Shown here: piece after piece, positions 18,351 through 63,487 of the stretch | How positions within the stretch are numbered: position 1 is the stretch's first letter | How the letters are laid out: every line of letters starts with the position of its first letter | Assembly: GCA_903872035.1 (NCBI GenBank) | Contig: CAIQIZ010000028.1 | Coordinates: 24,038 to 88,037 of the forward strand | DNA from: an uncultured bacterium | GTDB taxonomy: Bacteria; Patescibacteriota; Minisyncoccia; Phycocordibacterales; PALSA-1337 | Direction of reading: 5' to 3' | DNA: 64,000 nucleotides | The notes under the pieces: model-generated | The model's input: only the letters and a program-made list of their open reading frames with translations | The model's database searches: none | Told to the model about the DNA's origin: nothing | Program-made: the position numbers and the translations under genes

Positions 18351-18363
18351 TATGTATAAGCTC

Positions 18364-18419
18364 GTAACACTTTGCCAGTTTGAAACTGGCCCACAGTTAT
18401 CAAACTAGCAAAGTGTTAC
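18364..18419 (-). repeat. Family-1 palindromic extragenic element, copy A (subfamily with AACTGTGGGCCAGTTT apex)
   Basis: 12-bp perfect arms GTAACACTTTGC / GCAAAGTGTTAC around a loop containing CTGGCCCACAG. Confidence 0.6.
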
Positions 18420-18434
18420 TCGCTAAACTCATTC

Positions 18435-19199: not shown

Positions 19200-19219
19200 C
19201 ATATCAACCAGAAGACTCC

Positions 19220-19271
19220 GAAAATACTCCCGTTTGCCGCTGGCCCACAGCGCTCAAACAGGAGTATTTTC
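19220..19271 (-). repeat. Family-1 palindromic element, copy B
   Basis: 17-bp arms; the core, read on the minus strand, is GTTTGAGCGCTGTGGGCCAGCGGCAAAC, identical to copy F. Followed on the plus strand by TTTTCTTTG, so it may also terminate yidC. Confidence 0.7.
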
Positions 19272-19297
19272 TTTGTCTTCCAATCTTCGCTCAACTA

Positions 19298-21788: not shown

Positions 21789-21792
21789 GGTA

Positions 21793-22836
21793 TTAATTGG
21801 TTATTGATGGCGCAGCATTTGAAGACGCTGCAGTGAACATGGCTGTAAAACCGGAATTGGCGCTCTGGAGGATCTGCTTATTGTTGGCGATACTCAAGGT
21901 GATATTAGAAGCTCCCGCTGTTCCTACGGGCGCACGCAAGATAACGGAATCATTTGTAGTCAATTCTGGATGCGCGACGTTGTTGATAAGCCAAGAAAAA
22001 GAAAGATCTCCAGATTTATTGGCCGGTTTATTGAAACCGTAAGGAATGGCTAGAATGTTGGCTTCCCTTTGCGAACCGATGCGATACGAAGAGTTGATAG
22101 CCAAGTTGAAGAGCGGACCATAGAGAGGATCGTTTATGTAAAAAGTGATCGAAGGCGATTGGGGGGTTATTGTGATCATGCTTTCAGCTTGGCCGGAGCC
22201 TGTGCGCGGTGTCACGTTCACGGACAGGTCATATGCTCGAGGGACTATATCCCCCACTAACATGATCGACTGTTTTCCATAACCAGACTGGTCTCCGAGG
22301 ATTTGGTTATTCTTGCTCCATTGGTAGATGAGAGTTTTTGGGTCGTATTCAACACCATCTGAATTGGCGATATGAGGAACAGCGACCACAGTAACGGAAT
22401 TTTGATAAACAACGGGCGCTTTTCCTCGGAAGGAAGGTGGCACGTAACCATCTGTTTCAGTTACTAGGTCGACCGAACCTGAACCGATCACGGTGCTTCC
22501 GGTGGTTGTTTGGCCATTATTCGTGACCATTGTGACTTTTATATTCAGTTTTTTACCGAGAGCTGGGGCGGTCACTGTGAGAGTCGTAAGACCGTTGCCG
22601 CTTTGAGCCACTTTACCATTGACCGACCAAGTAATCTTCGATGAATCGATACTGGCACTATAGCTCGCTGCTGTGATCGTTATTTGTTGTCCAGGTGCTG
22701 GATTTTCCGATGAAACCGAGAGGGTGACACCGCCGGATGAGGGAACACTTTGGGCGTGCGAGCAAGGAGCAAGAAGGAAGGAGCAAGAAGCGAGGAGGAC
22801 GCCGGCGGATACGATTGATAGAAAATGACGATTCAT
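21793..22836 (-). CDS. Secreted beta-rich hypothetical protein
   Basis: Signal peptide MNRHFLSIVSAGVLLASCSFLLAPCSHAQ, Thr/Ser-rich. Confidence 0.5.
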   Translation of the reverse strand: MNRHFLSIVSAGVLLASCSFLLAPCSHAQSVPSSGGVTLSVSSENPAPGQQITITAASYSASIDSSKITWSVNGKVAQSGNGLTTLTVTAPALGKKLNIKVTMVTNNGQTTTGSTVIGSGSVDLVTETDGYVPPSFRGKAPVVYQNSVTVVAVPHIANSDGVEYDPKTLIYQWSKNNQILGDQSGYGKQSIMLVGDIVPRAYDLSVNVTPRTGSGQAESMITITPQSPSITFYINDPLYGPLFNLAINSSYRIGSQREANILAIPYGFNKPANKSGDLSFSWLINNVAHPELTTNDSVILRAPVGTAGASNITLSIANNKQILQSANSGFTAMFTAASSNAAPSITN

Positions 22837-22897
22837 CAGTGTCTATTTTAACATGAATTAGTCGGATGGAATGAAGAGTTATCACCATTTGGAAACT

Positions 22898-23443
22898 TTA
22901 TGCAGAGAATGATGACTCGGCATTTTTTACCGATTTTCCAATCGTAGGTCCTGTTGCTTGTATATGGCCTCTAGGTCTTCCGACACCATCTACGTAGAAT
23001 CTAGAGGATTCGCTTGGTTGAAGCTGTTCGGTCCTAGCTCTACCCACACCATCCTCGACATATTTACGAGCCATTCCGGCCTGCAAAAATTCCTCCTGCT
23101 CCCGCTCAGCGTTCATTTGAGCCTCCTCTTTTTTTACATCGCTATGAATGTACCAGACATCCAAAATCCACAGCTGCGCTATTCCGCCGGTAACTGCGGA
23201 CAGCGCCTCCATACCAACTAAAGATGCTAATCGACTCGGGTGTTGGACGAGAGAGACCTTTTTTCCGAACTGGATCCACAGAGCAATGATGACACCGACG
23301 ATGGGATCCAAAATTTCATTTATTGCCACTCCAATACCAAAGACCCAGACGAGGATGCATTCGATGATGACGAACTGTATGAAGTCCATTCCGCCAGCAA
23401 AGAGATACAATAAAAACCAGCCTTTTGATTTGGGTTTTGCCAT
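22898..23443 (-). CDS. Small membrane protein with an internal YV(E/D)GVGR repeat
   Basis: Two TM helices followed by a charged tail. Confidence 0.45.
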   Translation of the reverse strand: MAKPKSKGWFLLYLFAGGMDFIQFVIIECILVWVFGIGVAINEILDPIVGVIIALWIQFGKKVSLVQHPSRLASLVGMEALSAVTGGIAQLWILDVWYIHSDVKKEEAQMNAEREQEEFLQAGMARKYVEDGVGRARTEQLQPSESSRFYVDGVGRPRGHIQATGPTIGKSVKNAESSFSA

Positions 23444-23473
23444 TGCGTTTCAATTATAACAGAAAGCATCCCC

Positions 23474-25288
23474 TTACTGCCCTGCTGCCTCGAGATCCTT
23501 CTTGGCTTTCTCGATCTGCATGACTTGAGCTGGATTTGTGGTGATGATCTGATCCTCTGTATAGGAGGCGACGATCTTGATGGCTACGTGTTTCAAGCCG
23601 ACGAAGAACATGCCTTCCCCGACATCTGATTCGAGCAACAAGTATTTCTCTTCGTCTGTTAAGTTGAATGTTTGCTGGATGTGATCGATTACGGTTGGCG
23701 ATTGTTTGAGCAGGATCTGAATTGAAGAGTTGGTAAGAATCGGCAAACCATAGGGAGATTTCAAGAAGTCATCCACGTCTTGGGTTATTGTCGCCAAGCC
23801 AAGGTAATATTTACGGCCACGTTTTGCCAATCCGAATAGGAATGAGGCCGTATCTTCGGATTTCATCATCCACCAAGCCTCATCGATGACTAGGAGCCTC
23901 TTCTTCCTGATCTTGCGCACGGCATTCCATATGAAGTGGGTGACTATATACATGGCTACCGGCTTGAGCTCGTCTTCCATGTCGCGGAGAGAGAAGACAA
24001 CGAACTTCTTGTTGATGTCCACGTTTGAAGGTCTGTTGATGAAGCCGGACCAGGTTCCTTTGGTGTACTTGGTCAATCTTTGTACTAATGATTCACCACC
24101 TTCCATTCCAGCTAGGACGAGCTCGAAGTCAGACAAAAGAGGCGGTTCGACTGTGCGAAAGTCGGATTCTGGAGATATATCCTTGAGCGCATATGTTTCG
24201 GTGATGGCACGATCGATGATAGCGTCCTCTTCTTGGGACAGGCCGCCCAACATGATACGGAAGAGGCCGACCAAGTTGATGATGTTAGATCGTAATACGT
24301 CCGCTGCCGATTCATCTTCGGCTGGTATAGGTAGATCGAATGGGTTGATATGGTGCTCAGAATTCAGAGAGATGTTGAAATACTTCCCTCCTGTAGCTTC
24401 CGACATGTATTCATATTCTTTTTCCGGATCGATGACGATCACATCGGTATCGAACATCAAAGTCCGAAGAATCTCCAGCTTTGTGCAGTATGATTTACCG
24501 GCACCAGCCACGGCGAACGTCACAGAATTGTAGTTTTCAAGAAGGTATCGGTCGAAAAGGACCAGCGATGAATTGTGGCGATTTATTCCATAAAGTATTC
24601 CTTTATCTGAAGTGAGGTCGAAAGAGACGAACGGGAATAGCGACGAGAGTGGCGAGGAGTTCAGCTTGGAATGTACCGCCAATTGGTCGTCGGCTATAGG
24701 AATGACTGATTTGAAGCCTTGTTCTTGTTGGAAAAGGGCTGGTTTGACGTAAACAAGTTTCGATTCAAGAATGGACTTGATCTCTGATTCCAACTTGTCG
24801 AGATCGCCATCAGAATCGGCAAAGATCGTAATATATACGCCAACGTCGAAGAGATGTTCTTGCGCTTGCATCAATTGGTCACGGAGCGCTTCCAGGTCCT
24901 GATATGCAGTGTCTAGGCCAGGATCGCGGACCAAACCCTTCTCTTCTCTCCTGGATATCTGGCTTTGCACCTCGGCCACTTTCTTTTGGAAGTGTCGGAG
25001 AATCTTGGCTGTTTCGACTGGGTGGATGAAAATAGAGACATTGAAGACTTTATCTAGGTTGATGATAGGTGCGAACCAGCTTTCATCGAGGAAACGCGGG
25101 TAAGAAATGACAAATAGAGTGCGGCCGACCTTCTCGCCAAGATTCAATTCCTTCGGGCTAACTTTCAAGGCTGATGGTGCGATGACGTCCTTCAGCTCCA
25201 ATACGCCCGCTTGGTAGATCTCATTAGGAAGCACCGAAACGATGGGGGCTTCTGTTTTTTTGCCGAAGAGTTTGTTAAATATAGACAT
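23474..25288 (-). CDS. VirB4/TrbE/CagE-family type IV secretion ATPase
   Basis: 604 aa; Walker A VAGAGKS, Walker B VIDEAWWMM, overall VirB4 architecture. Confidence 0.8.
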   Translation of the reverse strand: MSIFNKLFGKKTEAPIVSVLPNEIYQAGVLELKDVIAPSALKVSPKELNLGEKVGRTLFVISYPRFLDESWFAPIINLDKVFNVSIFIHPVETAKILRHFQKKVAEVQSQISRREEKGLVRDPGLDTAYQDLEALRDQLMQAQEHLFDVGVYITIFADSDGDLDKLESEIKSILESKLVYVKPALFQQEQGFKSVIPIADDQLAVHSKLNSSPLSSLFPFVSFDLTSDKGILYGINRHNSSLVLFDRYLLENYNSVTFAVAGAGKSYCTKLEILRTLMFDTDVIVIDPEKEYEYMSEATGGKYFNISLNSEHHINPFDLPIPAEDESAADVLRSNIINLVGLFRIMLGGLSQEEDAIIDRAITETYALKDISPESDFRTVEPPLLSDFELVLAGMEGGESLVQRLTKYTKGTWSGFINRPSNVDINKKFVVFSLRDMEDELKPVAMYIVTHFIWNAVRKIRKKRLLVIDEAWWMMKSEDTASFLFGLAKRGRKYYLGLATITQDVDDFLKSPYGLPILTNSSIQILLKQSPTVIDHIQQTFNLTDEEKYLLLESDVGEGMFFVGLKHVAIKIVASYTEDQIITTNPAQVMQIEKAKKDLEAAGQ

Positions 25289-25292
25289 ATGT

Positions 25293-25985
25293 TTATGTGA
25301 TCTGGATAGGCTTCTCTGTTTCTCCCGGATTGAATAGCTTGTAATACAATTCGACCACTTCTTCTGTTCCCAATTCTGCAGCCCTGATGCCGCAGCGGAC
25401 CAAGCCTTGTTCGACTACCGATACCCTCTGCTCGAGTTGGCTACGGTATTCTTGGAATTGAGCATCGGCTGTTTCAGTTTGATTCTTTCCTTGATTTTTT
25501 CCTGGTAAGAATTTTGTCAGAGGATTGTTGCTGGCACTTATCATCGCCGGATCGTACGGAATGACCACAAAGAAGCTCTTGGACATGATATTGGTGCTTT
25601 CCACGAATGTCTTGATGAATTCGATATATTCGCGCACCTGGATCTTCATAAGCTCGGTTAACTGTTCCTTGTAGCGATCTTCCAGAAGAGCAATATACGG
25701 CCGTATGTCTAGCTTTTTTGACTGGATGAATATTTGGATGGAAAAATCTAGAGAGTTCACGAAATTCTGGAATTGCATGAGAATGGAACTCTGCTCATCC
25801 TGCGATTTCAAGGCAAAGTTGAGCGATGAAGCCAGGATGATGGAGCGCATGCCCCCATTTCTCAAGATGACCACGCCGTCGCGGATCTCCTGGATAGGCA
25901 CGAAGTTTTGGGTGGTTTGTGATTTGACGTTTTTTGCCATAGGAATTATCGCTGATTTACCGCTGATTCTTATTCGAATAGACAC
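25293..25985 (-). CDS. VirB4 N-terminal-domain-like protein, translationally coupled to VirB4
   Basis: Stop TAA, then ACAT, then the VirB4 ATG (4-nt gap). Core pattern PIQEIRDGVVILRNGG...FQNFVNSLDFSIQIFIQSKKLD resembles the non-ATPase N-domain of VirB4-family proteins. Confidence 0.4.
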   Translation of the reverse strand: MSIRIRISGKSAIIPMAKNVKSQTTQNFVPIQEIRDGVVILRNGGMRSIILASSLNFALKSQDEQSSILMQFQNFVNSLDFSIQIFIQSKKLDIRPYIALLEDRYKEQLTELMKIQVREYIEFIKTFVESTNIMSKSFFVVIPYDPAMISASNNPLTKFLPGKNQGKNQTETADAQFQEYRSQLEQRVSVVEQGLVRCGIRAAELGTEEVVELYYKLFNPGETEKPIQIT

Positions 25986-26391
25986 TCTCTTTGATATCCA
26001 AGCTCCAGGTCAGGTCTTTGAGCTTGCTGTCAGAGATCTTTGGAACCATGATAGAAGCGTAGCTCTTGACCTCATCGCCGGTCACTTCGGCTGATTTTTC
26101 TGGTATCTTCTCCTCTTTCTTCCATATATATAGCTTGTTCCCCCACCAATATTTGAATGCTGCCTCCATGACATTGACAAAGGGTTTGTTGTTGATTTTG
26201 TAGAAGGCTAAAGCAGCCGATAGCGCCATGATGGCGACGATGGGAATGAACGATAAGATGATGCTTTTCAAGAATACGTAGACTACGAAAGACAATCCTC
26301 CCCCGCCGACCAAGTATATGAATTGCTTCAAAGTGAGCGGTCCGAAGATCTTGTCTTCTACTTCGATGAATTGAGGTACTTGAAAACGCAT
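25957..26391 (-). CDS. PrgI/VirB3-like small T4SS membrane protein
   Basis: N-terminus MRFQVPQFIEVEDKIFGPLTLKQFIYL followed by two TM helices, matching the PrgI family pattern. Confidence 0.5.
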   Translation of the reverse strand: MRFQVPQFIEVEDKIFGPLTLKQFIYLVGGGGLSFVVYVFLKSIILSFIPIVAIMALSAALAFYKINNKPFVNVMEAAFKYWWGNKLYIWKKEEKIPEKSAEVTGDEVKSYASIMVPKISDSKLKDLTWSLDIKESVYSNKNQR

Positions 26392-26483
26392 TATGGCCTA
26401 ATTATAGCGTCAAGCGAGGATTTGTGGAAGCGAGCCTCCACAAAATACGAGCGGAGACGATATATGAGTGGAGCGAATATAGC
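26392..26483 (-). promoter_or_regulatory. Family-2 gene-upstream module: tandem-repeat box, hairpin, -10 TATAAT; promoter of the prgI-virB4 operon
   Basis: On the minus strand TATAAT lies 9 nt before the ATG at 26391. The conserved distal box is GCTATATTCGCTCCACTCATATATCGTCTCCGCTCG. The element fills the entire 92-nt intergenic gap. Confidence 0.5.
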
Positions 26484-27302
26484 TTAGCTGATCGATTCTT
26501 TGTATGGATCACCTGGTTTTGGATTGCTGACATCGATTTTCTTCGGAGTTTGTGGTGTTGGTGGTGGGACTGGCTTCGGTACGACAGGTTGTGGAGCGGC
26601 TGGAACTGGTGTGGTCGCATTTGGTATCGCTGCTATTGAAGGTTGGGAATCTTTTGGTACGGTAAGCGGAAGAGTGCCTTTTTGGTTAATCGGCGTTTGT
26701 GATTCTTCAATTTTCGGTGGATTTTCCAGGATGGACGGGCACGTTGTCGGGTCCTCTACGCCAGCCAATATCTTTGCTCTGTCTGCGACAGTAATCCCGC
26801 TACTGCTTTCCAATATGCTGCTCGGCCTATCGATGCTGAAATCGCCAGCTGTTTCTACAGATGACATGGTCGATTCAGCATGATCGTTTTCCAAAGGTTG
26901 CTCTAGAGCAGCGATGTCTTGCTGTCCAGTGTCGTTCGTTTGTTCGTCGATCGCTCGTGCAGCATCTTCAGATTTTTTAGATTTCTCCTCTATCTCTCGC
27001 ATCTGGGTCTTTATTGTCGAAAACACCTGACTATTTATATCAGTTGCGATCATTTGAGAAAGTTTTGCGTCGATGGATAGCCGATCAGAAAGGTCACTTA
27101 CAAATGTGGATGCTTTGGCGAAACCCAGTATCACTAGAACGACTTGATCGACAAGATCACCAACCTGATCGATCATCAGTTCATATTTTTTTCCAATGGC
27201 CTGGATCGTGTTCAGAACTTCTTGCGATGAAATTGCTTTCTGCAGTTCCTTCGGCAGTTTCTCGAATTGGGCCTGGATTTGTTCGGTGGTGTAGTCTTTC
27301 AT
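26484..27302 (-). CDS. Hypothetical protein with Pro-rich C-terminus
   Basis: 272 aa, within the T4SS-like block. Confidence 0.45.
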   Translation of the reverse strand: MKDYTTEQIQAQFEKLPKELQKAISSQEVLNTIQAIGKKYELMIDQVGDLVDQVVLVILGFAKASTFVSDLSDRLSIDAKLSQMIATDINSQVFSTIKTQMREIEEKSKKSEDAARAIDEQTNDTGQQDIAALEQPLENDHAESTMSSVETAGDFSIDRPSSILESSSGITVADRAKILAGVEDPTTCPSILENPPKIEESQTPINQKGTLPLTVPKDSQPSIAAIPNATTPVPAAPQPVVPKPVPPPTPQTPKKIDVSNPKPGDPYKESIS

Positions 27303-27313
27303 GTCATTGATTG

Positions 27314-29305
27314 TTATTTCTTTGGCGCATCTTTCGGTGTATCCTTGGGTGCTGCTGACGCTTCAGACTTCGTCTCTCTTGCAACAGCCTTCGCCATTCC
27401 GTCAATTCGTTCCTTCTCGGCCTCTTCTTCCCCAGCATCGATATCTTTTTGTAGTCGTACTTGTTCTTTCTCAAGACGCTCAACATCTGCTAATTCCTCA
27501 GGGCTAGCCGGAATTCCCGGTTTAAAACCAATAGGTTTCCCCTTTGCCACAATCTTAGCTTTGAGTTCTTTAAGTTCATCATCCACTCTCGTTTTCTCAC
27601 GTTTGTTAGCTGCCAGGTCTGACTTCGCTTTTTTATCTCGAACTACCTTGTCCAATTTTGCTGCTGTTTGCCGATTTGCTCTGTTATCGATAGCGAAACC
27701 TATTGCACCACCAAGGTATAGATTACCCGGGCTAGCCTTCCAAGGAAGACTTTCACGATATTTCGCCTGATATGCTTTGGCTTTATCCTTAGCTACTCCA
27801 AAGGCCTTATCTCCTTCGGGGCCTTGGGCGAAATCACCACGGTCGACTTTATCCAACCTATCATGCATTCCTTCCTCGGCTTTTTTCTTTGCTGCTAAGC
27901 GAGCTTCGTATCCACCCGCTTTACCCCCACCGAAGCCGCCTGTGCTGACCTTAGACAGACCAGAAGAAGCTAAACCGCCGATGCCGGGCAAACGGCTTGC
28001 CAGGAATTTCATCGGAGCGCTTTCGTTCGCTCTGTAAGCCGCACGTCCGAGAGTTCGAGCACCAGCCTGGCTTCCGACACCCTTCCAAATATTTGCCGCG
28101 CTGAACTTCTTCATGGTTTTATCCATCCATCCAGTCGCAGATCCGCCCATCTTGAGGCCGACGATGAGAGGAAGGTTGAGCATGACTATGACCATGGCAA
28201 AATTGATGGCTAACACCATATAACTGAAAGTCCAATTGGTACCGGCTGGCAAGCTTGAAATATTGGAACTAGCCGCGCCCATGATGTTGCTTTCGTTGAG
28301 GACTTTCAAGGCTGCATACATAAGCAAAAGATACACGGGCATAAAGACTAATTGGGCCTCTAGTTGTGTCTTGAATTCTTTCATTTTGTCTGCTATTTGC
28401 GGGATGATCATACCGGCAAACCATATAGGTGAGAAGGCCAACAGAAATAGCAGGATAACCAATCTTGCGATGAATGCCGCCGCAGCCAAGAGAAAGCTGA
28501 AAGCGGCTGTTATCATTATGACAATGCCGACTATACCGACGACGATGATTGTGAAGGAATCTCCAAGTTTAGTTCCGATCCCGTTAGTCTTGGTATTAAA
28601 ATTGGTTTGGATCTTCAGGCTGTTCATGAAGATTTGAGAGATGCCATTTCCCGCGCTGACATTTGAGGTGCTTTGGGTCATTCCGGTTGCTGTCGCCAAA
28701 TCGGCTACGGTCGTCTTATCAGTCATGGTGATAGATGTTGGTACCATGGAGTTGAAAATAGCCAAAGAGACGACATTTGAAGCATCGATGAGGACGCTGA
28801 CTATGAAGAAACTGAAGTTGATCAGTATACCAGCGGTGACGATGGAGACTATCACTTTGCCATAATTGTTTCCAAGACCAAGGATGATTTGGAAGGCCGC
28901 GTATAGAAGGAAAAATATGAAGAATATGCCGGTCACGTCGCGGATAGTCTGCCAAATGGCGTAAATGGCGGGTGTGGCACTGACGAAGTCTTTGATGTGC
29001 ATGGTTATAACTATGGAAACGTTCAATATACCTCCGGCGAATGTGAGCATTATGCCCATAGCGTCTAAAGCAGTATTAACAATGTTTGATAGTACAGTAT
29101 TTATGCATTTCGTCGGATGAAGGACGTCACTCACGCTACATCCAGTTTGGCCACCGCCCGAACCTGGGTCAGGAGTGCTTGTTGGTGATGGAGACGCAGT
29201 TACAGACGGCGTTGGAGTCTGTGCGTTTACAGGAACTGCAAACAAAGAAAACACCGTAAGGACGAGGAAGAGTATCGGGATGATTTGTTTGAAATGCGAT
29301 TTCAT
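27314..29305 (-). CDS. Polytopic membrane protein, possibly VirB6/TrbL-like, with a charged C-terminal tail
   Basis: Signal peptide, six or more TM helices, then a Lys/Glu-rich hydrophilic C-terminus. Confidence 0.4.
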   Translation of the reverse strand: MKSHFKQIIPILFLVLTVFSLFAVPVNAQTPTPSVTASPSPTSTPDPGSGGGQTGCSVSDVLHPTKCINTVLSNIVNTALDAMGIMLTFAGGILNVSIVITMHIKDFVSATPAIYAIWQTIRDVTGIFFIFFLLYAAFQIILGLGNNYGKVIVSIVTAGILINFSFFIVSVLIDASNVVSLAIFNSMVPTSITMTDKTTVADLATATGMTQSTSNVSAGNGISQIFMNSLKIQTNFNTKTNGIGTKLGDSFTIIVVGIVGIVIMITAAFSFLLAAAAFIARLVILLFLLAFSPIWFAGMIIPQIADKMKEFKTQLEAQLVFMPVYLLLMYAALKVLNESNIMGAASSNISSLPAGTNWTFSYMVLAINFAMVIVMLNLPLIVGLKMGGSATGWMDKTMKKFSAANIWKGVGSQAGARTLGRAAYRANESAPMKFLASRLPGIGGLASSGLSKVSTGGFGGGKAGGYEARLAAKKKAEEGMHDRLDKVDRGDFAQGPEGDKAFGVAKDKAKAYQAKYRESLPWKASPGNLYLGGAIGFAIDNRANRQTAAKLDKVVRDKKAKSDLAANKREKTRVDDELKELKAKIVAKGKPIGFKPGIPASPEELADVERLEKEQVRLQKDIDAGEEEAEKERIDGMAKAVARETKSEASAAPKDTPKDAPKK

Positions 29306-29311
29306 AGAATA

Positions 29312-31072
29312 TTATGGGGCGGCTGTCGGCGTGGCCGTTCCACTGGTGCAAAGGGCTTGGTATGGCGCCAGAGTCGTCTGAAGCGTGGTGGCTGTTTGGG
29401 TGGCGGTAGTGAGATATGTTTGGGCAACTTGCGGATCTAGAACAGCCGTAGTTGACTGGGCTATGAGGTTGTTCAAACTATTTTGTTGGTCGGTCAACTG
29501 TTGGGCTGTTGTGGCGCTTTGCATCTGTGACACAGCGCTTTGGATGGCTAGCAAGACAGATTGCGTGCTGTTATAAGCGCTTTGATATTGGTTGACTGCT
29601 GGAGTCACAGTGATGGAGATGACGTTATTCAAAGCAGTGAGGCTCGTTTGCAGACTTGCCGCTGCTCCGGAAGCGCTGGCTCGCGTCTGTAGACAGGCTG
29701 AAGCCGCTGCATAAGCAGTTTGTTGTTGTTTTATGAGTGTGAGTGCCGAATTCAAAGTCGTCACTGATTGTTGGACTGATGCGACCGCAGTATTGATCGG
29801 AGCAACGGTCTGCTGTTTGAGATTGGTGAAGTTTGTTTGAAGTGCTGGGTCGCTGTTTGCGTATTGGTTGATGAATGATTGGGATGCTGCGTTGCTTCCA
29901 GAGCTTGAATTGCTAGAAGTTGTTTTCGTCAAAGACAACAATCCACCACCATTAGAGAGGACCTGATTGAAGAGCTGATTTGTCAAAGCGGTGGCTATCT
30001 CGTTTATATCGTGGGTCATGTTCAAAGTATCGGTTTGGGCACCGAGCTGTTTGTTGAGTGCGGCGGAAATGACTGAACCTGGCGTCTCGACGTGGCAGAC
30101 TTTGGTGGTTGCGGTGCTTCCAGAAGATGTTTGAACGTTGTCGCATTTTTGCCATGACAAGAATCCATTTCCCCTGTTCAGGTCATTATTGATCGCGTTC
30201 TGTTTTTTCTGTATCTGCACATCCAGGTCGCTCTTTGCTTGTAGGGCAGCCCCGAAAGCATTGTTTTGTGGCTCGGACACTAGAGCCATGAAAGCTGGCC
30301 AGCCACCTTGACGGAAATCGCCTCCCATGAAGCCGTCGACGCTGGCACCATTAATGCTTATATCGTTAGGGTTGTTCAGGACATTTCCTGACATTATATC
30401 TCCTAGATTTGTGCCATTCGAACTTCCCTTAACTGAGACGGAAACATTGCCGCTTTGTTTGGCTGTCTGTATCACCTTGCTCAAGGTACATGTATATCGT
30501 TGATTTAAGGTCGATGTTTGTCCCAATGCTAGCGAGAGACGAAGGTCGATATTGAATGGAGAACAGAGTGATTTACCTAACGGACCGAGGTCGCTGATGA
30601 ATGCCCCGGTAACTTGGTCGGCGGCATCCATGAAGAAACCTTCAGGATTCTTTAAGAACGCCGGTTCTCCTTTGAAGCCGGTATTGATCCAAGTTACTAC
30701 GCTATTCGTAAGTTGGTGCAGTATCACCTGGGCAGCTTGCCAGGCCAGGCCTTTCCATGTGCAGACGTCATCCTTCACGGCCGTAGTATTTGATCTAACC
30801 GTTGCGTCGGAAACAGGCACCGCATTCCCACCAATGATGCTCCCTACGCTACCGCTTCCACCACTGCCGCCACCGATACCTACTGCGCTTCCTATGCCAC
30901 TTAAAATCGATCCCATGTTACAAGCGATCAGTCCCGCCCCCACTCCCCCGACCGCTCCTGCTATTTGTGCCTGTGCTGTTGCGGGAAGATATACTGCCGA
31001 GGTCATGAATAGAATCGAAGTAACGAATGCTAGGCAGATCCCATTTTTGATTATGTTGTTCTTGATTGTCAT
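29312..31072 (-). CDS. Secreted Gly-rich then Q/T/S-rich protein
   Basis: Signal peptide; low-complexity repeats. Confidence 0.45.
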   Translation of the reverse strand: MTIKNNIIKNGICLAFVTSILFMTSAVYLPATAQAQIAGAVGGVGAGLIACNMGSILSGIGSAVGIGGGSGGSGSVGSIIGGNAVPVSDATVRSNTTAVKDDVCTWKGLAWQAAQVILHQLTNSVVTWINTGFKGEPAFLKNPEGFFMDAADQVTGAFISDLGPLGKSLCSPFNIDLRLSLALGQTSTLNQRYTCTLSKVIQTAKQSGNVSVSVKGSSNGTNLGDIMSGNVLNNPNDISINGASVDGFMGGDFRQGGWPAFMALVSEPQNNAFGAALQAKSDLDVQIQKKQNAINNDLNRGNGFLSWQKCDNVQTSSGSTATTKVCHVETPGSVISAALNKQLGAQTDTLNMTHDINEIATALTNQLFNQVLSNGGGLLSLTKTTSSNSSSGSNAASQSFINQYANSDPALQTNFTNLKQQTVAPINTAVASVQQSVTTLNSALTLIKQQQTAYAAASACLQTRASASGAAASLQTSLTALNNVISITVTPAVNQYQSAYNSTQSVLLAIQSAVSQMQSATTAQQLTDQQNSLNNLIAQSTTAVLDPQVAQTYLTTATQTATTLQTTLAPYQALCTSGTATPTAAP

Positions 31073-31078
31073 AGTGAT

Positions 31079-31945
31079 TTATCGGACTAGCGCATTCAAA
31101 GCGTTCTGATTGATCATGAATGGAACCCCCTCGCCCTCCAGTACAGCGTTCATATCTTGTAGGCCGGTGATGATCTGTTGGGCCCCGGTCACGTGCATAG
31201 ACATACCGGATAGGCCGCTTACGGAGTCAGTGTCAAAGCCGCGAAAATCTACAGCTGCGGATTTCATCGTGCTCAGGGCGTTCACAAGTTCTAGATATTG
31301 GGATGAAATGATCTCGGGTGTAGGGATAGCAAGAAGTGAAGAGATCATCCTCTTGTATGCAGCGATGATCGGGTCGATATTTTTGAGTACGGATGGATCA
31401 TTCTTGGAAATATATGATTGGACGATTGAAGATTGGCTAGTTCTTATATTATATGAATCGAGGACCGTGGTGACTGCCTGGCTGAAGGTTAGTAGCGTAT
31501 TTTTATCGTTTGCGGCGATCGTATGCAAATCACCGACAACATATAATTTTGTTGGATTTGTATTGATATGCTCAGCCGCAATATTTGCTGTCGTTTGGTC
31601 TATAGCGTCCTGATCATTCACCAAATCTGCTTGTTTCAGTCCGATATAGCTGGTAAAGAAATCTCTCGCTAAGTTATCAGTTGCTGTAAGCTTCTCTTTT
31701 GTGATGGCGGAATCGCTGTTCGGAGGTGTCTTAACTGTCCCCTCGAACTGTTTCTTCCAGTCACCATTGTCGGTGCTAGTATTTGGTTGCAAATCTGTCA
31801 CCACAGCAGCCGAGTTGTTGTTGCCAGCGCCATTTATTTGGCCAGCGTTTGCGTTTAACGAGGCGTAATGGGTTGTTCCCCAGACGGCCAAAACGCAAAC
31901 CACGAATATTATTACCGTCTGCTTACGCGGGTAGAAAATCGCCAT
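31079..31945 (-). CDS. N-terminally membrane-anchored hypothetical protein; first gene of the minus-strand block
   Basis: Single N-terminal TM helix. Tandem TATACT TATACT directly before the ATG. Confidence 0.45.
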   Translation of the reverse strand: MAIFYPRKQTVIIFVVCVLAVWGTTHYASLNANAGQINGAGNNNSAAVVTDLQPNTSTDNGDWKKQFEGTVKTPPNSDSAITKEKLTATDNLARDFFTSYIGLKQADLVNDQDAIDQTTANIAAEHINTNPTKLYVVGDLHTIAANDKNTLLTFSQAVTTVLDSYNIRTSQSSIVQSYISKNDPSVLKNIDPIIAAYKRMISSLLAIPTPEIISSQYLELVNALSTMKSAAVDFRGFDTDSVSGLSGMSMHVTGAQQIITGLQDMNAVLEGEGVPFMINQNALNALVR

Positions 31946-36594: not shown

Positions 36595-36698
36595 GGAGGT
36601 ATCTTACAGGAAGAATGATGAATGAGGAATGATCGGCGGTGCAGTAAAAGTTCCTACTACGTCGTTTGGCTCTAGGAGATTATGTTTTAGAAGGCGAA

Positions 36699-36750
36699 GG
36701 AAATCTTTTTGTTTGAGCGCTGGGGGCCAGCGGCAAACAGAAAGATTTCC
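36699..36750 (+). repeat. Family-1 palindromic element, copy C
   Basis: GGAAATCTTTTTGTTTGAGCGCTGGGGGCCAGCGGCAAACAGAAAGATTTCC. Flanks (GAAGGCGAAGG on the 5' side, CGGAGTCTTC on the 3' side) are shared with copies F and B. Confidence 0.7.
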
Positions 36751-36975
36751 GGAGTCTTCGACAATACTTTATTTGACAGTTCGTCAATAAAGGTTATTAA
36801 AAGTAAGGTGTGCATATCTCTCGTTGACAATAAATCCTTGCCTGATAACCTAGAGAGATATCCTACAATAAGTAAGTAAAAAAATGGCCACACAGAGCCA
36901 TTTATTGTATAGGAATAAACACACTGGACGTATGGATGGCAGATCTGGCTGACTTGCGGAAAGAAAAAATTTATT

Positions 36976-38121: not shown

Positions 38122-39663
38122 TCAATTAATCTTTTGTCTATATTGTAGAGTTTCTAGGACATGTTCTTTTTCTATGGACAGGTTTCCTCCAAGATCGGCG
38201 ATCGTTCTGGCGACTTTGATGACTCGGTGGAATCCCCTGCCGGAAAGTCCGAGATTTTTTGCTGAGGCAGTGAGGAGTGATCGGGCATCGTCACTCAGCA
38301 TAATGCATTTCTCTATATCAGAGGCGTCCATTTCACTGTTGTATTGTTTGCGAATTCCGTGTTCAGTAAAACGTTTTTGCTGCGTATCTCTGGCCGCTAT
38401 GACGCGGGCTCTGACGGTTTCCGAATCTTCCGCGTCAGATGTCGGTGCGGCTAGCTTCTCATATTCGATCTTGTGGATATTGAGCCAAATATCCAGCCTG
38501 TCTATGATCGGCCCTGACATCTTGCGTCGATAGTTTTCCAGGGCTTTGGTCGTGCAGGTACATCCTTGGTCCCGACCCTTACCACAAGGGCATGGATTCA
38601 TAGAAGCGATGAGGATGCATTGGGCTGGAAATGTCACGGTGCCGCGGGCGCGGGATATCGTGATATGCCTATCTTCAAGCGGTTGACGCAAGGCTTCGAT
38701 AACCGCCCGATCGAATTCCGGAAATTCATCCATGAAAAGAACGCCGCGATGCGCCAAAGATATCTCGCCGGGCTTGGGTATATTGCCTCCGCCGACTATC
38801 GAAGGATATGAAGCTGTGTGATGAGGCGAACGGAATGGAGGTTCGGTTACCATGAAATCCCCCAGGATGTGAGCAGCGGAATGGACACTGGTAACTTCGA
38901 TCGATTGTTCATAAGAAAGCGGCGGAAGGATCGAGGAAAAGCTTTGGGCTAGCATGGTCTTACCTGTCCCTGGAGGTCCATACATGAGGATGTTGTGGGC
39001 GCCGGCAGCAGCGATCTCTAGCCCACGTTTACTAGATTTGTTACCTCGAATGGCGCGCATGTCCATGATGTAGACCCCCTTTTTCGGCATAGCGGACGGC
39101 AGCCGTGGAGTGAGCGGGATAACTCCTGCCCTGCCCATAAGATGGTCGATCGTCTCCCCAAGTGACGAGACGGGGAATATGGTCAATCCTTGGGCGAGCG
39201 ACGCCTCCTCTTGGTTTTCTTTAGGAATATACACTTGAGTAAATCCTTGCGCAGTCGCCTGACAAAGGATCGGCAATAAGCCGGCGACTCGTCGCACTTT
39301 TCCCTCCAAGGATAGTTCGCCTATAAAGAGCTTATGTTCGGTCTCAAGTTCAATATCTCCGGCTGCAGCTAGATACGCGAGTGCCATAGCTAGATCAAAC
39401 GACGGGCCTTCTTTGCGCAAGTCAGCTGGTGCCAGTGAGATAACCACCTTTTGGTTCTTTTGTTTTGGTGAAACGAATCCCGTGTTTTTGATAGCGGCGG
39501 CGATACGGTCCTTTGATTCTTCAATAGAACGATCCCCCAAACCGACCACGGAAAAGGAGTGAAGTCCATTTGAGATATCTACTTCAACGGTAATGATTTC
39601 CGATGTCAGGCCGATGAGTTCAGCGCAGTATGATTTTGCTAGGCTCATACTCGCATCATACAA
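38122..39663 (-). CDS. YifB/ComM family Mg-chelatase-like AAA+ ATPase
   Basis: 513 aa; Walker A GPPGTGKT, Lon-like N-domain, C4 zinc motif. Confidence 0.85.
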   Translation of the reverse strand: MYDASMSLAKSYCAELIGLTSEIITVEVDISNGLHSFSVVGLGDRSIEESKDRIAAAIKNTGFVSPKQKNQKVVISLAPADLRKEGPSFDLAMALAYLAAAGDIELETEHKLFIGELSLEGKVRRVAGLLPILCQATAQGFTQVYIPKENQEEASLAQGLTIFPVSSLGETIDHLMGRAGVIPLTPRLPSAMPKKGVYIMDMRAIRGNKSSKRGLEIAAAGAHNILMYGPPGTGKTMLAQSFSSILPPLSYEQSIEVTSVHSAAHILGDFMVTEPPFRSPHHTASYPSIVGGGNIPKPGEISLAHRGVLFMDEFPEFDRAVIEALRQPLEDRHITISRARGTVTFPAQCILIASMNPCPCGKGRDQGCTCTTKALENYRRKMSGPIIDRLDIWLNIHKIEYEKLAAPTSDAEDSETVRARVIAARDTQQKRFTEHGIRKQYNSEMDASDIEKCIMLSDDARSLLTASAKNLGLSGRGFHRVIKVARTIADLGGNLSIEKEHVLETLQYRQKIN

Positions 39664-39736
39664 GATGGAGATGAAGAAACTGTGAAGAAACCCTCAAAAA
39701 ATGATAAAAAGAGGTTCAAGAAACAATGAAGATTAT

Positions 39737-39807
39737 GGGGCAACGTAAATATGTACTGTTCCATAACTGTGGGCCAGTTTGAAACAGTACATATTTACGT
39801 TGCCCCA
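39737..39807 (+). repeat. Family-1 element, copy D: 24-bp perfect hairpin with AACTGTGGGCCAGTTTGAA apex
   Basis: GGGGCAACGTAAATATGTACTGTT at 39737-39760 pairs perfectly with AACAGTACATATTTACGTTGCCCC at 39784-39807. Confidence 0.7.
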
Positions 39808-46107: not shown

Positions 46108-46902
46108 ATGCGAATCATCTCCTGGAATGTGAACGGTATCAGATCTGTAGTAAAAAAAGGCTTATTTACTCCGTTTATTGAAAAATATCAGCCGGATATT
46201 TTGTGCTTGCAGGAAACCAAAGCCGAACAAGGTCAAGCAGTCATCGATCTAAGCGGATACGAGGAATACTGGAATTCGGCCAAGAAGAAGGGTTATTCTG
46301 GAACAGCAATTTTCACGAAATTAAAACCGATCGCTGTTTTTAATGATCTACCGGAGAATATTTGCACAAAATTTGGCTTGAAGGAGGACAAGTTTGGCGA
46401 TTCCAGGACCGAAGGCCGTGTGATCGCCGCCGAATTCGACAGATTCTTCGTTGTTACGGTTTATACGCCAAACGCAAAGGATGATCTTGGCAGGATTTCC
46501 CTACGTCACAAGCAATGGGACCCCGCATTCTTGGCCTATTGTAAAGAACTCGAATCAAAGAAGCCGGTTATTTTTTGTGGTGACTTGAATGTGGCGCACA
46601 CTCCAGATGATCTGGCGCGGCCGAAGGAAAATGAGGGATTGAAAGGCTTCACCAAAGAAGAACGAGAAGGGTTCCAGAATTTCATCGACGCCGGATTCAT
46701 CGATACATTCAGGATGTTCAATAAAGGCAATGGTTTTTACACATGGTGGTCTCATTGGTCCAATGCCCGAGCCCGAAATATTGGTTGGAGGATAGATTAC
46801 ATGATGGTCTCAAATACGTTGAAGAACAAGGTTGAATCAGCGGCTATTCACAGCGAGGTTTTGGGATCCGACCACTGCCCTATTGAAGTTGTTATCAAGT
46901 GA
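46108..46902 (+). CDS. xthA: Exodeoxyribonuclease III
   Basis: MRIISWNVNGIRS N-terminus; EEP-fold catalytic motifs. Confidence 0.85.
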   Translation: MRIISWNVNGIRSVVKKGLFTPFIEKYQPDILCLQETKAEQGQAVIDLSGYEEYWNSAKKKGYSGTAIFTKLKPIAVFNDLPENICTKFGLKEDKFGDSRTEGRVIAAEFDRFFVVTVYTPNAKDDLGRISLRHKQWDPAFLAYCKELESKKPVIFCGDLNVAHTPDDLARPKENEGLKGFTKEEREGFQNFIDAGFIDTFRMFNKGNGFYTWWSHWSNARARNIGWRIDYMMVSNTLKNKVESAAIHSEVLGSDHCPIEVVIK

Positions 46903-46910
46903 ATACGGAT

Positions 46911-46958
46911 CATCTTACTCATTTGGGCGCTGTGGGCCAGCGACAAATGAGTAAGATG
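46911..46958 (+). repeat. Family-1 palindromic element, copy E
   Basis: 15-bp perfect arms CATCTTACTCATTTG / CAAATGAGTAAGATG around GGCGCTGTGGGCCAGCGA; begins 9 nt after the xthA stop. Confidence 0.65.
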
Positions 46959-47467
46959 TGAGTATTCACTGTAGAGTTTCATGTAAAAGTAAAATCGCCA
47001 GAGGCGAGTTCAGATAGAATCCCGCATGGCGATTTTTGAAACACGCGGAATCTAAAGAACTCTTGGGTCTGTTGACCCCTCAGACCCTAAATGTTTGGAT
47101 CTGATTTCATCCACACCATTCCTGATAATTAGACGCACAGACTAATTATTGTAGTAGGTGATAGTGTGCTCTGTCTTTTTTTTTAGGTGCTCTCTCGTTC
47201 GAGGAGCTATAATTTTTTGAGACAAGATGCACTATCATCCTTAGCAACGGAAGGATGATATTTTAAATTGATTCCGCAAGCTTCGTGACACTGAGTAGTG
47301 TGAAGCCTACCTGACCATATATGAATGAACTGTAGTTTATCTTGTCCGACTTTCTGTCGAACACCTCGGTGACAAACTGGTCTGCGACTATTGTATGTCT
47401 TATAAAGGACAATGTAAAGGTCATAACTGTGGATAACTCGAGAATAAGTATGTCCTATATAAATAAT

Positions 47468-49042: not shown

Positions 49043-49114
49043 GCGCCCGTAGTGAAATGGATATCACATCAGTCTTCGGAACTGACGTTGCAGGTTCGAG
49101 TCCTGCCGGGCGCA
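49043..49114 (+). tRNA. tRNA-Arg (anticodon TCG); CCA not encoded
   Basis: Manual cloverleaf: 7-bp acceptor stem, D-arm, anticodon loop CTTCGGA, T-loop TTCGAGT. Confidence 0.8.
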
Positions 49115-49231
49115 CAAATTAGTTAGAGATCCGTACGTCATAAGTCCATAGAATTATGCGTTAATTTAGGCAATTTCTAGGTCGTTTTTGTCGCTTGAAA
49201 GTGAACCATTGACGCAGTATAATACAAGTCT

Positions 49232-49918
49232 ATGAAAAAAGATAAGGAACAGGCCACGGTCTTGAGACAGTCCGGAATGAGCTATTCTGACATCAGAGAG
49301 CGAATGGCTGTGCCGCTAAGCACTTTGTCAAAATGGTTTCACGATCAAAAGTGGTCAAACGACATTGCGATGGAGTCTGCCAAGAGGGCAAGAAGCTCGG
49401 CAGCCATACGGTTGACAGTGCTTAATACCGTCAGGGGCAGTCGACTTCGAAAGATATATGATGATGCCAGTCAAGATGCTCTGATTGACTATTCTGAGTT
49501 GAAGTTTCACCCGCTGTTCATGGCCGGGGTCATGATGTATTGGAGTCATGGTGATAAGACATCGAAGCAACGAATCTCTTTATCGAGCACGGATCCGAAA
49601 GTTATATCGATATTCAAGCTATTCCTGGAAAAGGTCTGTTCTGTAACAAATATGCGGGTACAAGTTTTGATTAGTCGTGAATACAATAGGGAAGTCGAAA
49701 TTCGAGGTTATTGGCAGGAAAACTGTCGTTTGCAGCCACAAAATTTCATTAAAACTATACAGAGCAAACAAATTAAGCCAAAAAAGCAAAGTAATAAGCC
49801 ATATTTCGGTGTTTGCAATCTTATAGTGAATAGTGCATACTTGAAAAACAAAATTTTGAAATGGGTTGAATTGATGTCAGAAGAGATAGTTCAAGAAAAA
49901 TACTTGAGTACAGTTTAG
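49232..49918 (+). CDS. Hypothetical protein with N-terminal HTH, located between tRNA genes
   Basis: LRQSGMSYSDIRERMAVPLSTLSKW resembles a resolvase-type HTH. Leaderless: TTGAAA, 17-nt spacer, TATAAT, 8 nt, ATG. Confidence 0.45.
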   Translation: MKKDKEQATVLRQSGMSYSDIRERMAVPLSTLSKWFHDQKWSNDIAMESAKRARSSAAIRLTVLNTVRGSRLRKIYDDASQDALIDYSELKFHPLFMAGVMMYWSHGDKTSKQRISLSSTDPKVISIFKLFLEKVCSVTNMRVQVLISREYNREVEIRGYWQENCRLQPQNFIKTIQSKQIKPKKQSNKPYFGVCNLIVNSAYLKNKILKWVELMSEEIVQEKYLSTV

Positions 49919-49934
49919 GGAAAGGGAGTCTAAT

Positions 49935-50005
49935 GCGGGTATAGTTTAGTGGTAGAACGTATCGTTGCCAACGATAAGATGGGAGTCCGATTCTCCCTAC
50001 CCGCA
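49935..50005 (+). tRNA. tRNA-Gly (anticodon GCC); CCA not encoded; atypical T-loop TCCGATT
   Basis: Manual cloverleaf with perfect 7-bp acceptor stem and anticodon loop TTGCCAA. Confidence 0.75.
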
Positions 50006-50217
50006 CAGGAAGAAGGTGTTGCAGAACAATCATCGAAATTACGCATAGATCCATGTTTCAGGGACGATTTTTTGTTGTCTGTTAACAATGTCTCTGGAAA
50101 ATGGCTTACCACCGTAGATTAAAAGACAAACAGTGGATAAACCTGTGTACAGAGGTGATAAGAGACACGGAATATGGCTAACAATCGTTAATTTCTACTA
50201 ATTAATGACTTATTGAC

Positions 50218-50673
50218 ATGACTTTATCAACAAAAAGTGACCCAGATTATCAAAACGTTCGCGCTAGAAACAGACTAAAGGGAAACTTGGGTGAGAATAT
50301 AGCCTGTAAATACTTGATGGAAAGGGGATTTGATATTTCTGACAGGAATTATAGAAAACCATGGGGAGAATTGGACATTATTGCGGTCAAAGACAGTGTT
50401 ATTCATTTCGTTGAGGTAAAAAGTGTTGCAGTTAGGGGATTACCGTCGCTTAGATTAGAAAAGGGTTCAATTCATGATGGTTTGCCGGCTCATAGTCCCG
50501 AGGAAAATGTTCACGCTTTCAAATTGAAGCAAATCAGGAAGATGATAAGGACCTATTTTAGTGAGAGGGAGGTTGAATGCGAAAGAGAATTCCGGTTCCA
50601 TGTCATTTGCGTGTACCTAAATATGGATACTCGTTTGGCCCGCGTCCGCTGGATCGAAAATATTATTATATAA
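50218..50673 (+). CDS. YraN-family (UPF0102) endonuclease-like protein
   Basis: GENIACKYLMERGF...GELDIIAV pattern. Confidence 0.65.
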   Translation: MTLSTKSDPDYQNVRARNRLKGNLGENIACKYLMERGFDISDRNYRKPWGELDIIAVKDSVIHFVEVKSVAVRGLPSLRLEKGSIHDGLPAHSPEENVHAFKLKQIRKMIRTYFSEREVECEREFRFHVICVYLNMDTRLARVRWIENIII

Positions 50674-50755
50674 TTTTTGCCTTTTATGCTAGGATAGTTT
50701 CCATTGATGCTGGATTGCTGGTTGTTGTTAGCAGTAGGGGTCTGGTCTTTCAAAT

Positions 50756-50828
50756 CGGGGCGTGGTGTAACGGCTAACATGCCTCTTTTGGGAAGAGGTG
50801 ACTCCGGGTTCGAATCCCGGCGCCCCGA
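50756..50828 (+). tRNA. tRNA-Pro (anticodon TGG); CCA not encoded
   Basis: Perfect 7-bp acceptor stem, anticodon loop TTTGGGA, T-loop TTCGAAT. Confidence 0.8.
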
Positions 50829-50860
50829 CAAGCTTAGTGTGCTAAAATTACGAGAACATC

Positions 50861-51376: not shown

Positions 51377-51414
51377 TGAAATATCCTAACTTTTGCTAGT
51401 ATATCTCACACAAA

Positions 51415-51485
51415 GCGGGATTAGTTAAATGGTATAATAACAGTTTTCCAAACTGTGGTCGGGAGTTCGATTCTCCCATCCCGCA
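51415..51485 (+). tRNA. tRNA-Gly (anticodon TCC); CCA not encoded
   Basis: Acceptor GCGGGAT / ATCCCGC, anticodon loop TTTCCAA, T-loop TTCGATT. Confidence 0.8.
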
Positions 51486-51496
51486 CAAATTAAAAT

Positions 51497-52250: not shown

Positions 52251-52334
52251 TAGTATAGCGGCAAGCGAGGATTTGTGGAAGCTTGCTTCCACAAGATCCG
52301 AGCGCAGACGACGTATGAGCGAAGCGATTATAGC
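52251..52334 (-). promoter_or_regulatory. Family-2 gene-upstream module upstream of the metallophosphoesterase gene
   Basis: Shares both conserved boxes and the ATTTGTGGAAGC hairpin arm with the copy at 26392. The -10 is TATACT, 44 nt before the ATG. Confidence 0.5.
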
Positions 52335-52346
52335 AAAAATGCCAAC

Positions 52347-63320: not shown

Positions 63321-63415
63321 TTTTTGAGCATAAGCTAATAATTCTTGAGCATATTTTACCATGTTTCTGGCAAGTGGGTAATTATGAAAGCTTCGTAGGT
63401 TGATTGAAGGCGAAA

Positions 63416-63465
63416 GAAATCCTGCTGTTTGAGCGCTGTGGGCCAGCGGCAAACGGCAGGATTTC
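63416..63465 (+). repeat. Family-1 palindromic element, copy F
   Basis: GAAATCCTGCTGTTTGAGCGCTGTGGGCCAGCGGCAAACGGCAGGATTTC; 5' flank GAAGGCGAAAG as in copy C. Confidence 0.7.
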
Positions 63466-63487
63466 TAGAGCCTTTAGTAAGTTTTGA

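Follow-up and report, generated by a model that had tools for sequence, protein, structure and literature searches.

The DNA analysed here, a 64,000-nt stretch referred to below as the window, contains intergenic hairpins whose tips are nearly the same. What kind of element are they, and what could have spread them? A preliminary description had reported six such hairpins with a common 11-nt apex, and these were borne out by a motif scan, an inverted-repeat search and fold energies. Scanning with the 11-mer CTGTGGGCCAG and allowing one mismatch, we found CTG[T/G]GGGCCAG six times in the 64-kb window, as compared to 0.48 occurrences expected; none of 100 shuffles reached six. The sites lie at 18386(-), 19240(-), 36720(+), 39767(+), 46930(+) and 63436(+), the one in copy C reading CTGGGGGCCAG rather than CTGTGGGCCAG. 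At every site the motif caps a hairpin of 55-80 nt whose arms measure 15-31 nt. No other inverted repeat in the window is as strong as these six hairpins, which fold at -42 to -52 kcal/mol. A covariance model built from 20 distinct copies scored them at 63-78 bits, the next best score in the window being 15.9 bits. The copies are listed below, with covariance model scores in bits.

Copy A, 18352..18433, minus strand: arms 18359-18383 and 18400-18424, apex 18386-18396; 64.6 bits; between rnpA and yidC, both on the plus strand, with the motif antisense to both.
Copy B, 19206..19288, minus strand: apex 19240-19250, mid-stem ACTCCT/GGGAGT, subtype B/C/F/G; 78.1 bits; between the convergent ends of yidC and ORF 19298-20629.
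Copy C, 36682..36764, plus strand: apex 36720-36730 with loop GGGGC, mid-stem CTTTTT/AGAAAG, subtype B/C/F/G; 78.2 bits; between a divergent uvrD/pcrA-like gene (minus strand) and a LysM-M23 peptidase gene (plus strand).
Copy D, A-rich 5' module, 39664..39735 (72 nt), plus strand: direct repeats TGAAGAAAC/TCAAGAAAC/TGAAGATT; found by blastn, alignment and nhmmer.
Copy D, hairpin, 39736..39807, plus strand: 28-bp arms of 96% complementarity, apex 39767-39777; 63.4 bits; between the stop of a dksA-like gene and the start of a yifB-like gene, both on the minus strand, with the motif antisense to both.
Copy E, 46891..46978, plus strand: arms 46911-46925 and 46944-46958, apex 46930-46940, variant inner palindrome; 63.5 bits; begins 9 nt past the xth stop codon, between convergent gene ends.
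Copy F, 63398..63480, plus strand: apex 63436-63446, mid-stem CCTGCT/GGCAGG, subtype B/C/F/G; 76.9 bits; between the stop of an H+-PPase gene and the next gene, both on the minus strand, with the motif antisense to both.

All six window copies are intergenic: A, D and F between co-directional genes, B and E between convergent ones and C between divergent ones. Copies B, C and F have about 75 nt in common at 79-89% identity, and to that extent the flanks quoted for them in the preliminary description hold, with B (GAAGACAAAG) and F (AGAGCCTTT) deviating from the consensus. The inner palindrome described as common to B, C, E and F is indeed found in B, C and F, whereas E carries a variant (ATTTGGGCG...CGACAAAT). 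The extent given for copy D was too short, as the conserved 72-nt 5' module at 39664-39735 belongs to it. Copy F is also present in a strain-variant contig (L029); a TTG-started ORF (61884-63452) overlaps it, its start probably being called too far upstream. The sole other covariance match, marginal at 15.9 bits (47233-47260, plus strand), is a small ordinary hairpin followed by TTTTAAATT; it was rejected as a family member and looks like a conventional terminator-type structure.

As to the genomic setting, the presence of dnaN, dnaA, rpmH, rnpA and yidC at 15-19 kb indicates that the window spans the origin region. By its encoded proteins and nearest relatives, the DNA belongs to the Patescibacteria (Paceibacteria/Parcubacteria, Taylorbacteria-like). 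Beside it lies a long co-directional block on the minus strand (19298-31945), with copy B at its end, which encodes mostly unannotated proteins as well as TraG-like, TraC-like and PrgI-like components of type IV secretion or conjugation type. Further along (49043-51486), tRNA genes for Arg-TCG, Gly-GCC, Pro-TGG and Gly-TCC alternate singly with small ORFs and form no compact cluster. Two population variants, L005 and L006, differ in the rnpA region beside copy A (positions 9575-9916, window ~18009-18350), where rnpA is called as 113 aa versus 49 aa, and in the ORFs after yidC (439+356+47 aa versus 429+397 aa); these differing gene calls imply strain-level substitutions or frameshifts near copies A and B.

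Hairpins with a conserved tip

The preliminary description had allowed for more than six copies, and the covariance model and pattern scans found them. A seventh, copy G, lies on the same contig, 7 kb past the left end of the window. This 93-kb freshwater metagenome contig is present in many samples; in the 79 kb of it that were examined, there are seven copies, or about one per 11-13 kb. Scanning metagenomes with a degenerate pattern of 26 nt yielded 11 loci on other contigs, and the covariance model added two variant-apex copies elsewhere; in one of these the apex stem is compensated (CCG-TGGGC-CGG). In total, the family comprises 23 distinct loci in related freshwater contigs, seven on the window contig and 16 on others, and the copy loci are not syntenic between contigs. 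Scanning species-representative genomes with a 22-nt core gave only four single matches, in high-GC Planctomycetes MAGs, which we judged to be due to chance; representatives of the lineage either lack the exact 22-nt core or are absent from that collection. Viral contigs returned 0 matches and hence gave no sign of a phage origin.

Across the 23 loci, conservation is limited to the tip, which is made up of a 3-bp CTG/CAG stem, the pentaloop TGGGC and, below two more base pairs, a bulged A on the 5' side (or an AG/G internal loop). Beneath the bulge usually comes GTTTG/CAAAC, followed by a further stem of 15-28 bp whose sequence varies from copy to copy and yet remains paired. In the alignment, 94.1% of the cells assigned to pairs are paired, as compared to 65.8% in shuffles (0 of 500 reached the observed value) and about 40% with the partners slid, and 19 of the 22 pairs show compensatory changes on both sides. 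Copies B, C, F and G illustrate this at close range: they have the outer and inner stems in common and differ in a 6-bp mid-stem (ACTCCT, CTTTTT, CCTGCT and CTCTTC, paired in each case with the complement); most of the differences are transitions, and G.T intermediates remain in B and F. This pattern reads as stepwise compensatory drift in a segment that would have to pair and would not be read for its sequence. Mismatches on the CTGTGGGCCAG strand, in a count that includes partly related copies, are G.T in 19 cases versus A.C in five. Together with the bulged A and the non-palindromic loop, this G.T excess is only suggestive of one particular strand being the folded, selected form.

The view, taken in the preliminary description, that the palindromes form a dispersed family and are not independent terminators is upheld by the lack of a T-tail, the occurrence in several contigs and populations and the very strong covariation. 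A consensus scan for rho-independent terminators called none of the six window copies, and their flanks have no T-runs, which rules out this class. The notion of a copied 70-80 nt element needs qualification: a dispersed REP-like family it is, but conservation of the apex, and not of the arms, means that there is no simple 70-80 nt copy-and-paste consensus behind it. The MITE-like label does not hold, with no terminal inverted repeats matching an IS, no target-site duplication and the whole element consisting of one hairpin.

Several further searches for tags, ends and targets came back empty. Neither a GTAG nor a CGTC tag was found at the hairpin bases of TGGGC-apex copies. As a universal 5' tag equivalent to GTAG, TGAAGATT/GATT was rejected, the TGAAGATT box occurring (with at most one mismatch) in only 5 of the 23 copies; it belongs to the A-rich module and not to every copy. 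Direct repeats flanking B, C, F, G and L018a were not found, a comparison of empty and filled TsaD sites of a sister family (see below) gave no clean duplication, and for the TGGGC-apex family neither a target-site duplication nor a target motif could be defined. The orientation of the copies follows no consistent pattern with respect to transcription or to the origin of replication (clusters of DnaA boxes near 16.2 and 17.7 kb). An integron attC site was rejected from the sequence, in which GTT...AAC runs opposite to the order of the R''/R' boxes, and an integrase is lacking. From the Rickettsia palindromic elements (RPEs), the hairpins are set apart by description, having no CGTC tag, a length of 55-80 nt and a host of another phylum.

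With Rfam 15, only four tRNAs reach the gathering threshold in the window, and what a permissive scan adds, such as mir-5882 with 35 bits versus 95, is generic hairpin noise. A second, unrelated intergenic element of ~84 nt is conserved at 26400-26483 and 52252-52335 of the window, as well as at L011 3947-4030 and L018 5197-5285. Its consensus is TATAGCG.CAAGCGAGGATTTGTGGAAGC...GCTTCCACAA.ATCCGAGCG.AGACGA..TATGAGCG.AGCGA.TATAGC; copies are 78-92% identical across contigs, and an inner hairpin retains pairing through compensatory changes (five pairs, four sequences). It has no Rfam match at gathering score and may represent a small RNA or cis element not yet described.

Copies read in frame within genes

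REP/RAYT systems are regarded as extragenic, and the palindromes of the window had been called extragenic in the preliminary description as well. True for all window copies, this does not extend to the family: 7 of the 16 copies on other contigs, and thus 7 of 23 overall, are in-frame insertions, without stop codons, in long ORFs of conserved genes. The host genes, confirmed by Pfam and by independent database gene calls, encode SMC (twice), TsaD, a VirD4/TraG-like ATPase, dihydroorotate dehydrogenase (DHODH), RsmH and a SAM-dependent methyltransferase; an SMC gene has a further, third copy 43 nt after its stop codon. These intragenic copies fold at -41 to -61 kcal/mol and use three reading frames and both orientations. 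A protein search with concatenated element-encoded peptides for further in-frame insertions scored nothing, the peptide matches being too short to score.

Comparison with solved structures places the inserts of TsaD and RsmH in turns of 1-4 residues. The TsaD insert has 26 residues versus ~4 in characterised TsaD structures, that of RsmH 22 residues versus ~1 in the T. maritima MraW structure, and the C-terminal domains downstream of the inserts remain in frame. The turn that holds the TGGGC element in the TsaD of locus L009 is a hot spot for variable inserts among the TsaD homologues of the clade, with differing inserts in P0005, P0009, P0010, P0016, P0017, P0021, P0062 and P0082. Two TsaD genes, P0003 and P0004 (L020 10001-11332 versus L022 1673-2914), are 97% identical at the DNA level and differ by one 90-nt hairpin of a sister family (-50 kcal/mol), which is in one gene and absent from the other; this presence/absence polymorphism points to a recent gain or loss.

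A RayT-like transposase and the module of copy D

That REP-like repeats of this kind usually accompany a Y1 (RAYT) transposase, and that no such enzyme is encoded in the window, had both been noted beforehand. The latter proved correct, also for the 79 kb of the contig examined. Searching related genomes for a Y1/HUH transposase did uncover a RayT-like Y1 family in the clade, among whose genes none flanked by a TGGGC-apex hairpin was found; the former statement stands for the clade and probably extends to this particular palindrome. The 200-aa ORF P0121 (L017 5155-5757) matches Pfam Y1_Tnp with 31.4 bits (cutoff 23). Its best NCBIfam match is REP_Tyr_transpos at 38.4 bits versus a cutoff of 80, a score that makes it RAYT-like and not an equivalog. 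It has 341 homologues in Paceibacterota, several of them named RayT by JGI, and no database RayT exceeds 63% identity to it. Across the family alignment (28 homologues), the HUH, GT-WQG-YK and Y-x-HLNP motifs are invariant. A single-sequence search of the PDB returned no match, whereas a profile search gave weak matches to ISDra2 TnpA and E. coli TnpA-REP; a confident AF2 model (pLDDT 87.8) has as its best Foldseek match 4ER8 (E = 2.8e-6), the structure of E. coli TnpA-REP bound to a REP hairpin.

In five of five loci, from different genomes, rayT is bracketed on both sides by a genome-specific palindrome and has an A-rich module upstream. The order mraZ, rayT, Lys/Asn-tRNA synthetase recurs in three genomes, which speaks for stable inheritance of rayT there. 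Between mraZ and the palindrome on the rayT side, upstream of mraZ, are repeated AAGTGG(G/A/T) and TTATCCAC-like boxes (L017 4905-5030 and L023 5750-5900), which resemble DnaA boxes and the repeats of the MraZ operator. P0121 is flanked by a palindrome (GGTCAGACCTAT..., loop TGGTC) that differs from the TGGGC-apex hairpin, while the contig that carries P0121 also carries four TGGGC-apex copies. This contig and that of the window have no orthologues in common and do not overlap; their GC content is similar and both derive from the same sampling projects. A single genome may be the source of both; if it is not, the window genome may lack a close RayT orthologue. No rayT or remnant of one was found in the window, in its contig extensions (79 kb) or in apex-bearing loci except L017, and no rayT among the loci examined is flanked by a TGGGC-apex hairpin, so the link of this family to the enzyme is one that we infer, as are the strand used and the reaction chemistry.

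A connection between rayT loci and the window is offered by copy D. By alignment, its module is homologous to the regions upstream of rayT in five related genomes. These rayT-upstream modules end in ...ATGAAGATT with the palindrome directly next, and the hairpin that follows the module in copy D holds the same position as the rayT-flanking palindromes do. The same module occurs in L011, L013, L016, L019 and L017 (coordinates include window 39646-39735, L011 1169-1256, L019 5941-6028 and L017 5067-5157), and in copy D and the first four of these loci it precedes a TGGGC-apex hairpin. Synteny was rejected as the cause of the conservation seen in the 5' region of copy D, since these loci share no neighbouring genes with the window. 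In copy D, the 5' end of the module is 6 nt from the ATG of the yifB-like gene (39646-39648, minus strand), and this distance of exactly 6 nt to the start of the divergent neighbour is seen in three unrelated contexts in all, namely yifB, comEC and an MBL-fold gene; in L017, the module is ~9-20 nt from the rayT start. This placement would suit a role of the A-rich module as a portable promoter or a portable 5' leader. A small ORF within the copy D module was considered and rejected, the reading frames not being conserved between copies.

How rayT-flanking palindromes behave in this clade can be seen in another Paceibacterota genome (L024 1-20588, contig Ga0376277_0002365), where the palindrome next to rayT, GAGGCCTCGCCTCGAGGCGAGGCCTC, forms ~27 clusters in 20 kb. 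About 17 of these clusters fall within called genes, including those for TGT, NiFe hydrogenase, POR, acetyl-CoA synthetase and a NifS-like protein, and all of the intragenic ones are read through in frame as peptides of the RPRGEAS/LEASPRG type. In this clade, then, RayT-flanking palindromes disperse and invade coding regions.

Origin of the family and its place among known systems

Our preferred reading, to which we assign a probability of roughly 60%, is that the hairpins are a non-autonomous REP-like family carried by a lineage of Paceibacteria type (CPR), and that a Y1 transposase of RayT type mobilises them in trans by reading the tip on one strand, with the stems free to covary and insertions surviving in intergenic DNA or, if in frame, in protein turns that tolerate them. 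The strand reading 5'-CTGTGGGCCAG-3' would fold as single-stranded DNA into the long hairpin. Its tip, that is, the 3-bp CTG/CAG stem, the TGGGC pentaloop and the bulged A two bp below, would be recognised by a Y1 HUH transposase of RayT type, the product of a gene located elsewhere; this enzyme would cut and rejoin the strand and thereby copy or move the hairpin into single-stranded DNA at a new site. With fixed sequence needed in the tip alone, the remaining stem would need only to pair and would consequently drift by compensatory transitions. Insertions would persist where they do little harm, be it between genes, as in the window, or in surface turns of proteins, as in related contigs, and intergenic copies may secondarily have been co-opted, for example as mRNA-end structures.

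The palindromes might instead have spread without RayT, as selfish RPE-like elements moved by another transposase, by recombination or by gene conversion after DNA uptake, in which case the resemblance of the copy D module to rayT-upstream regions would be incidental, the module being, for example, a portable promoter or 5'-UTR cassette that tends to adjoin hairpins. The lack of a rayT with a TGGGC-apex hairpin beside it fits such a course, as do the ComEC, DprA and T4SS-like genes that the lineage encodes near copies, the fixed 6-nt spacing of the module from the starts of the unrelated yifB, comEC and MBL-fold genes, which suggests a role in expression, and the example of the RPEs, likewise without a known transposase (PMC3733652). 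We nevertheless regard it as unlikely, given that the hairpin after the module sits exactly where rayT-flanking palindromes sit, that in L024 the palindrome flanking rayT is the very one dispersed into genes, and that no other transposase was seen near any copy. Less likely again are structured elements serving the host, either as RNA hairpins (U-tract-independent terminators, mRNA stabilisers or RNase III sites) or as DNA sites for a host protein that binds the tip. Pairing maintained by compensatory change, a strand-specific G.U-type asymmetry and the location of 7/7 copies on the window contig at gene boundaries would all suit a host function, and known REPs are often co-opted for such roles; however, no copy is followed by a T-tail, the G.U-tolerant strand is antisense to the genes in three co-directional pairs (A, D and F), one copy lies between divergent genes, seven are in frame inside essential genes in both orientations, and there is neither an Rfam family match nor synteny of positions between contigs.

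The intragenic copies raise the further question of whether they are translated at all. Hairpins as stable as -41 to -61 kcal/mol would impede ribosomes in coding regions, and CPR rRNA genes carry insertions, so one might picture intervening sequences that are removed from transcripts before translation. Splicing would, however, make preservation of the frame unnecessary, and all 7/7 intragenic copies as well as the ~17 of the L024 family keep the frame, with no stops in the frame used; moreover, no ribozyme or bulge-helix-bulge motif was detected and most copies are intergenic, which leaves this explanation very improbable.

Mobilisation by RayT also invites comparison with described systems. 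Descriptions of REP/RAYT systems come for the most part from Proteobacteria and a few other phyla (PMC3733652), and the literature that we searched yielded no report of RAYT, REP or REPIN in Patescibacteria. As in the REPtrons of E. coli (TnpA-REP, 4ER8) and the REPINs of Pseudomonas, we find dispersed short palindromes that fold as single strands, a palindrome specific to each genome and a single-copy Y1 HUH gene bracketed by palindromes, the last shown here for sister families; the system probably works as one of the REP/RAYT type. The hairpins are longer, however (55-80 nt versus 20-40 nt for REPs), and it is the apex with its TGGGC loop and bulged A that is conserved and not the stem, the reverse of what is described for REPs. 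A GTAG tag is lacking, the units are single and not REPIN doublets, some copies come with an A-rich module, in-frame intragenic copies are frequent, and the host is a CPR bacterium. The TIRtrons, or TIRYT elements (Di Nocera et al. 2013, PMC3733652), resemble the present case in that the inverted repeats on either side of RAYT-like genes are longer, partly self-complementary and unrelated to GTAG REPs, with moderately abundant dispersed copies in some genomes (PMC3733652). The TIR families described carry either a shared GGGGWSAS motif or other sequences, and neither a conserved apex nor in-frame colonisation of genes is reported for them; they are set apart here by description.

In their choice of sites, the hairpins match the RPEs, which in the accounts given in PMC10969869 and PMC3733652 are likewise palindromic, lie between genes and in frame in conserved, apparently functional genes, add a peptide at a tolerated surface position and inhabit a host-dependent bacterium with a reduced genome. 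According to the same accounts (citing Ogata et al. 2000, 2002), RPEs are ~100-150 bp long, carry a CGTC tag, are restricted to Rickettsia, are conserved over their full length and have no associated transposase, whereas the present family is 55-80 nt long, is conserved at the apex only and has a candidate transposase in its clade. The ends of IS200/IS605 and their ORF-less derivatives (PATEs) likewise involve a Y1 HUH enzyme that acts on imperfect subterminal hairpins with an unpaired base, on a specific strand and with no target-site duplication. Their left end differs from their right end, cleavage falls outside the hairpins, and insertion takes place beside a defined tetra- or pentanucleotide, whereas the elements described here are single hairpin units with no defined target. 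Taken together, the system differs from known REP/RAYT systems in its apex-only conservation, hairpin length, lack of a tag, accompanying module and RPE-like colonisation of genes.

The in-frame palindromes of Rickettsia are without a known transposase (PMC3733652). The lineage studied here, host-dependent CPR bacteria with reduced genomes, combines RayT-like genes bracketed by palindromes with hairpins that are read through as peptides inserted into core proteins, TsaD, SMC and RsmH among them. We know of no mobilising enzyme that has been put forward for the Rickettsia palindromes in 25 years. As a tentative generalisation, which we hold with less confidence than our reading of the family itself and at somewhat under even odds, RayT-type Y1 transposases of Paceibacteria-type CPR might mobilise genome-specific hairpins into intergenic DNA and, on a large scale and always in frame, into the coding regions of essential genes; they would then supply an enzyme for the RPE phenomenon and a major source of lineage-specific peptide inserts in CPR proteins, and the enzyme of the TGGGC family would read only the hairpin tip, a mode of recognition not described for REPs. 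If the link to RayT is true, the mechanism behind protein-coding palindromes would become testable with recombinant RayT and a defined hairpin tip of 28 nt, some of the unusual, insert-rich proteins found in CPR bacteria would be explained, and the hairpins would offer a marker for binning and strain tracking of these uncultured organisms. Apex-only conservation with freely covarying stems, finally, amounts to a natural experiment on what a Y1 transposase needs for recognition.
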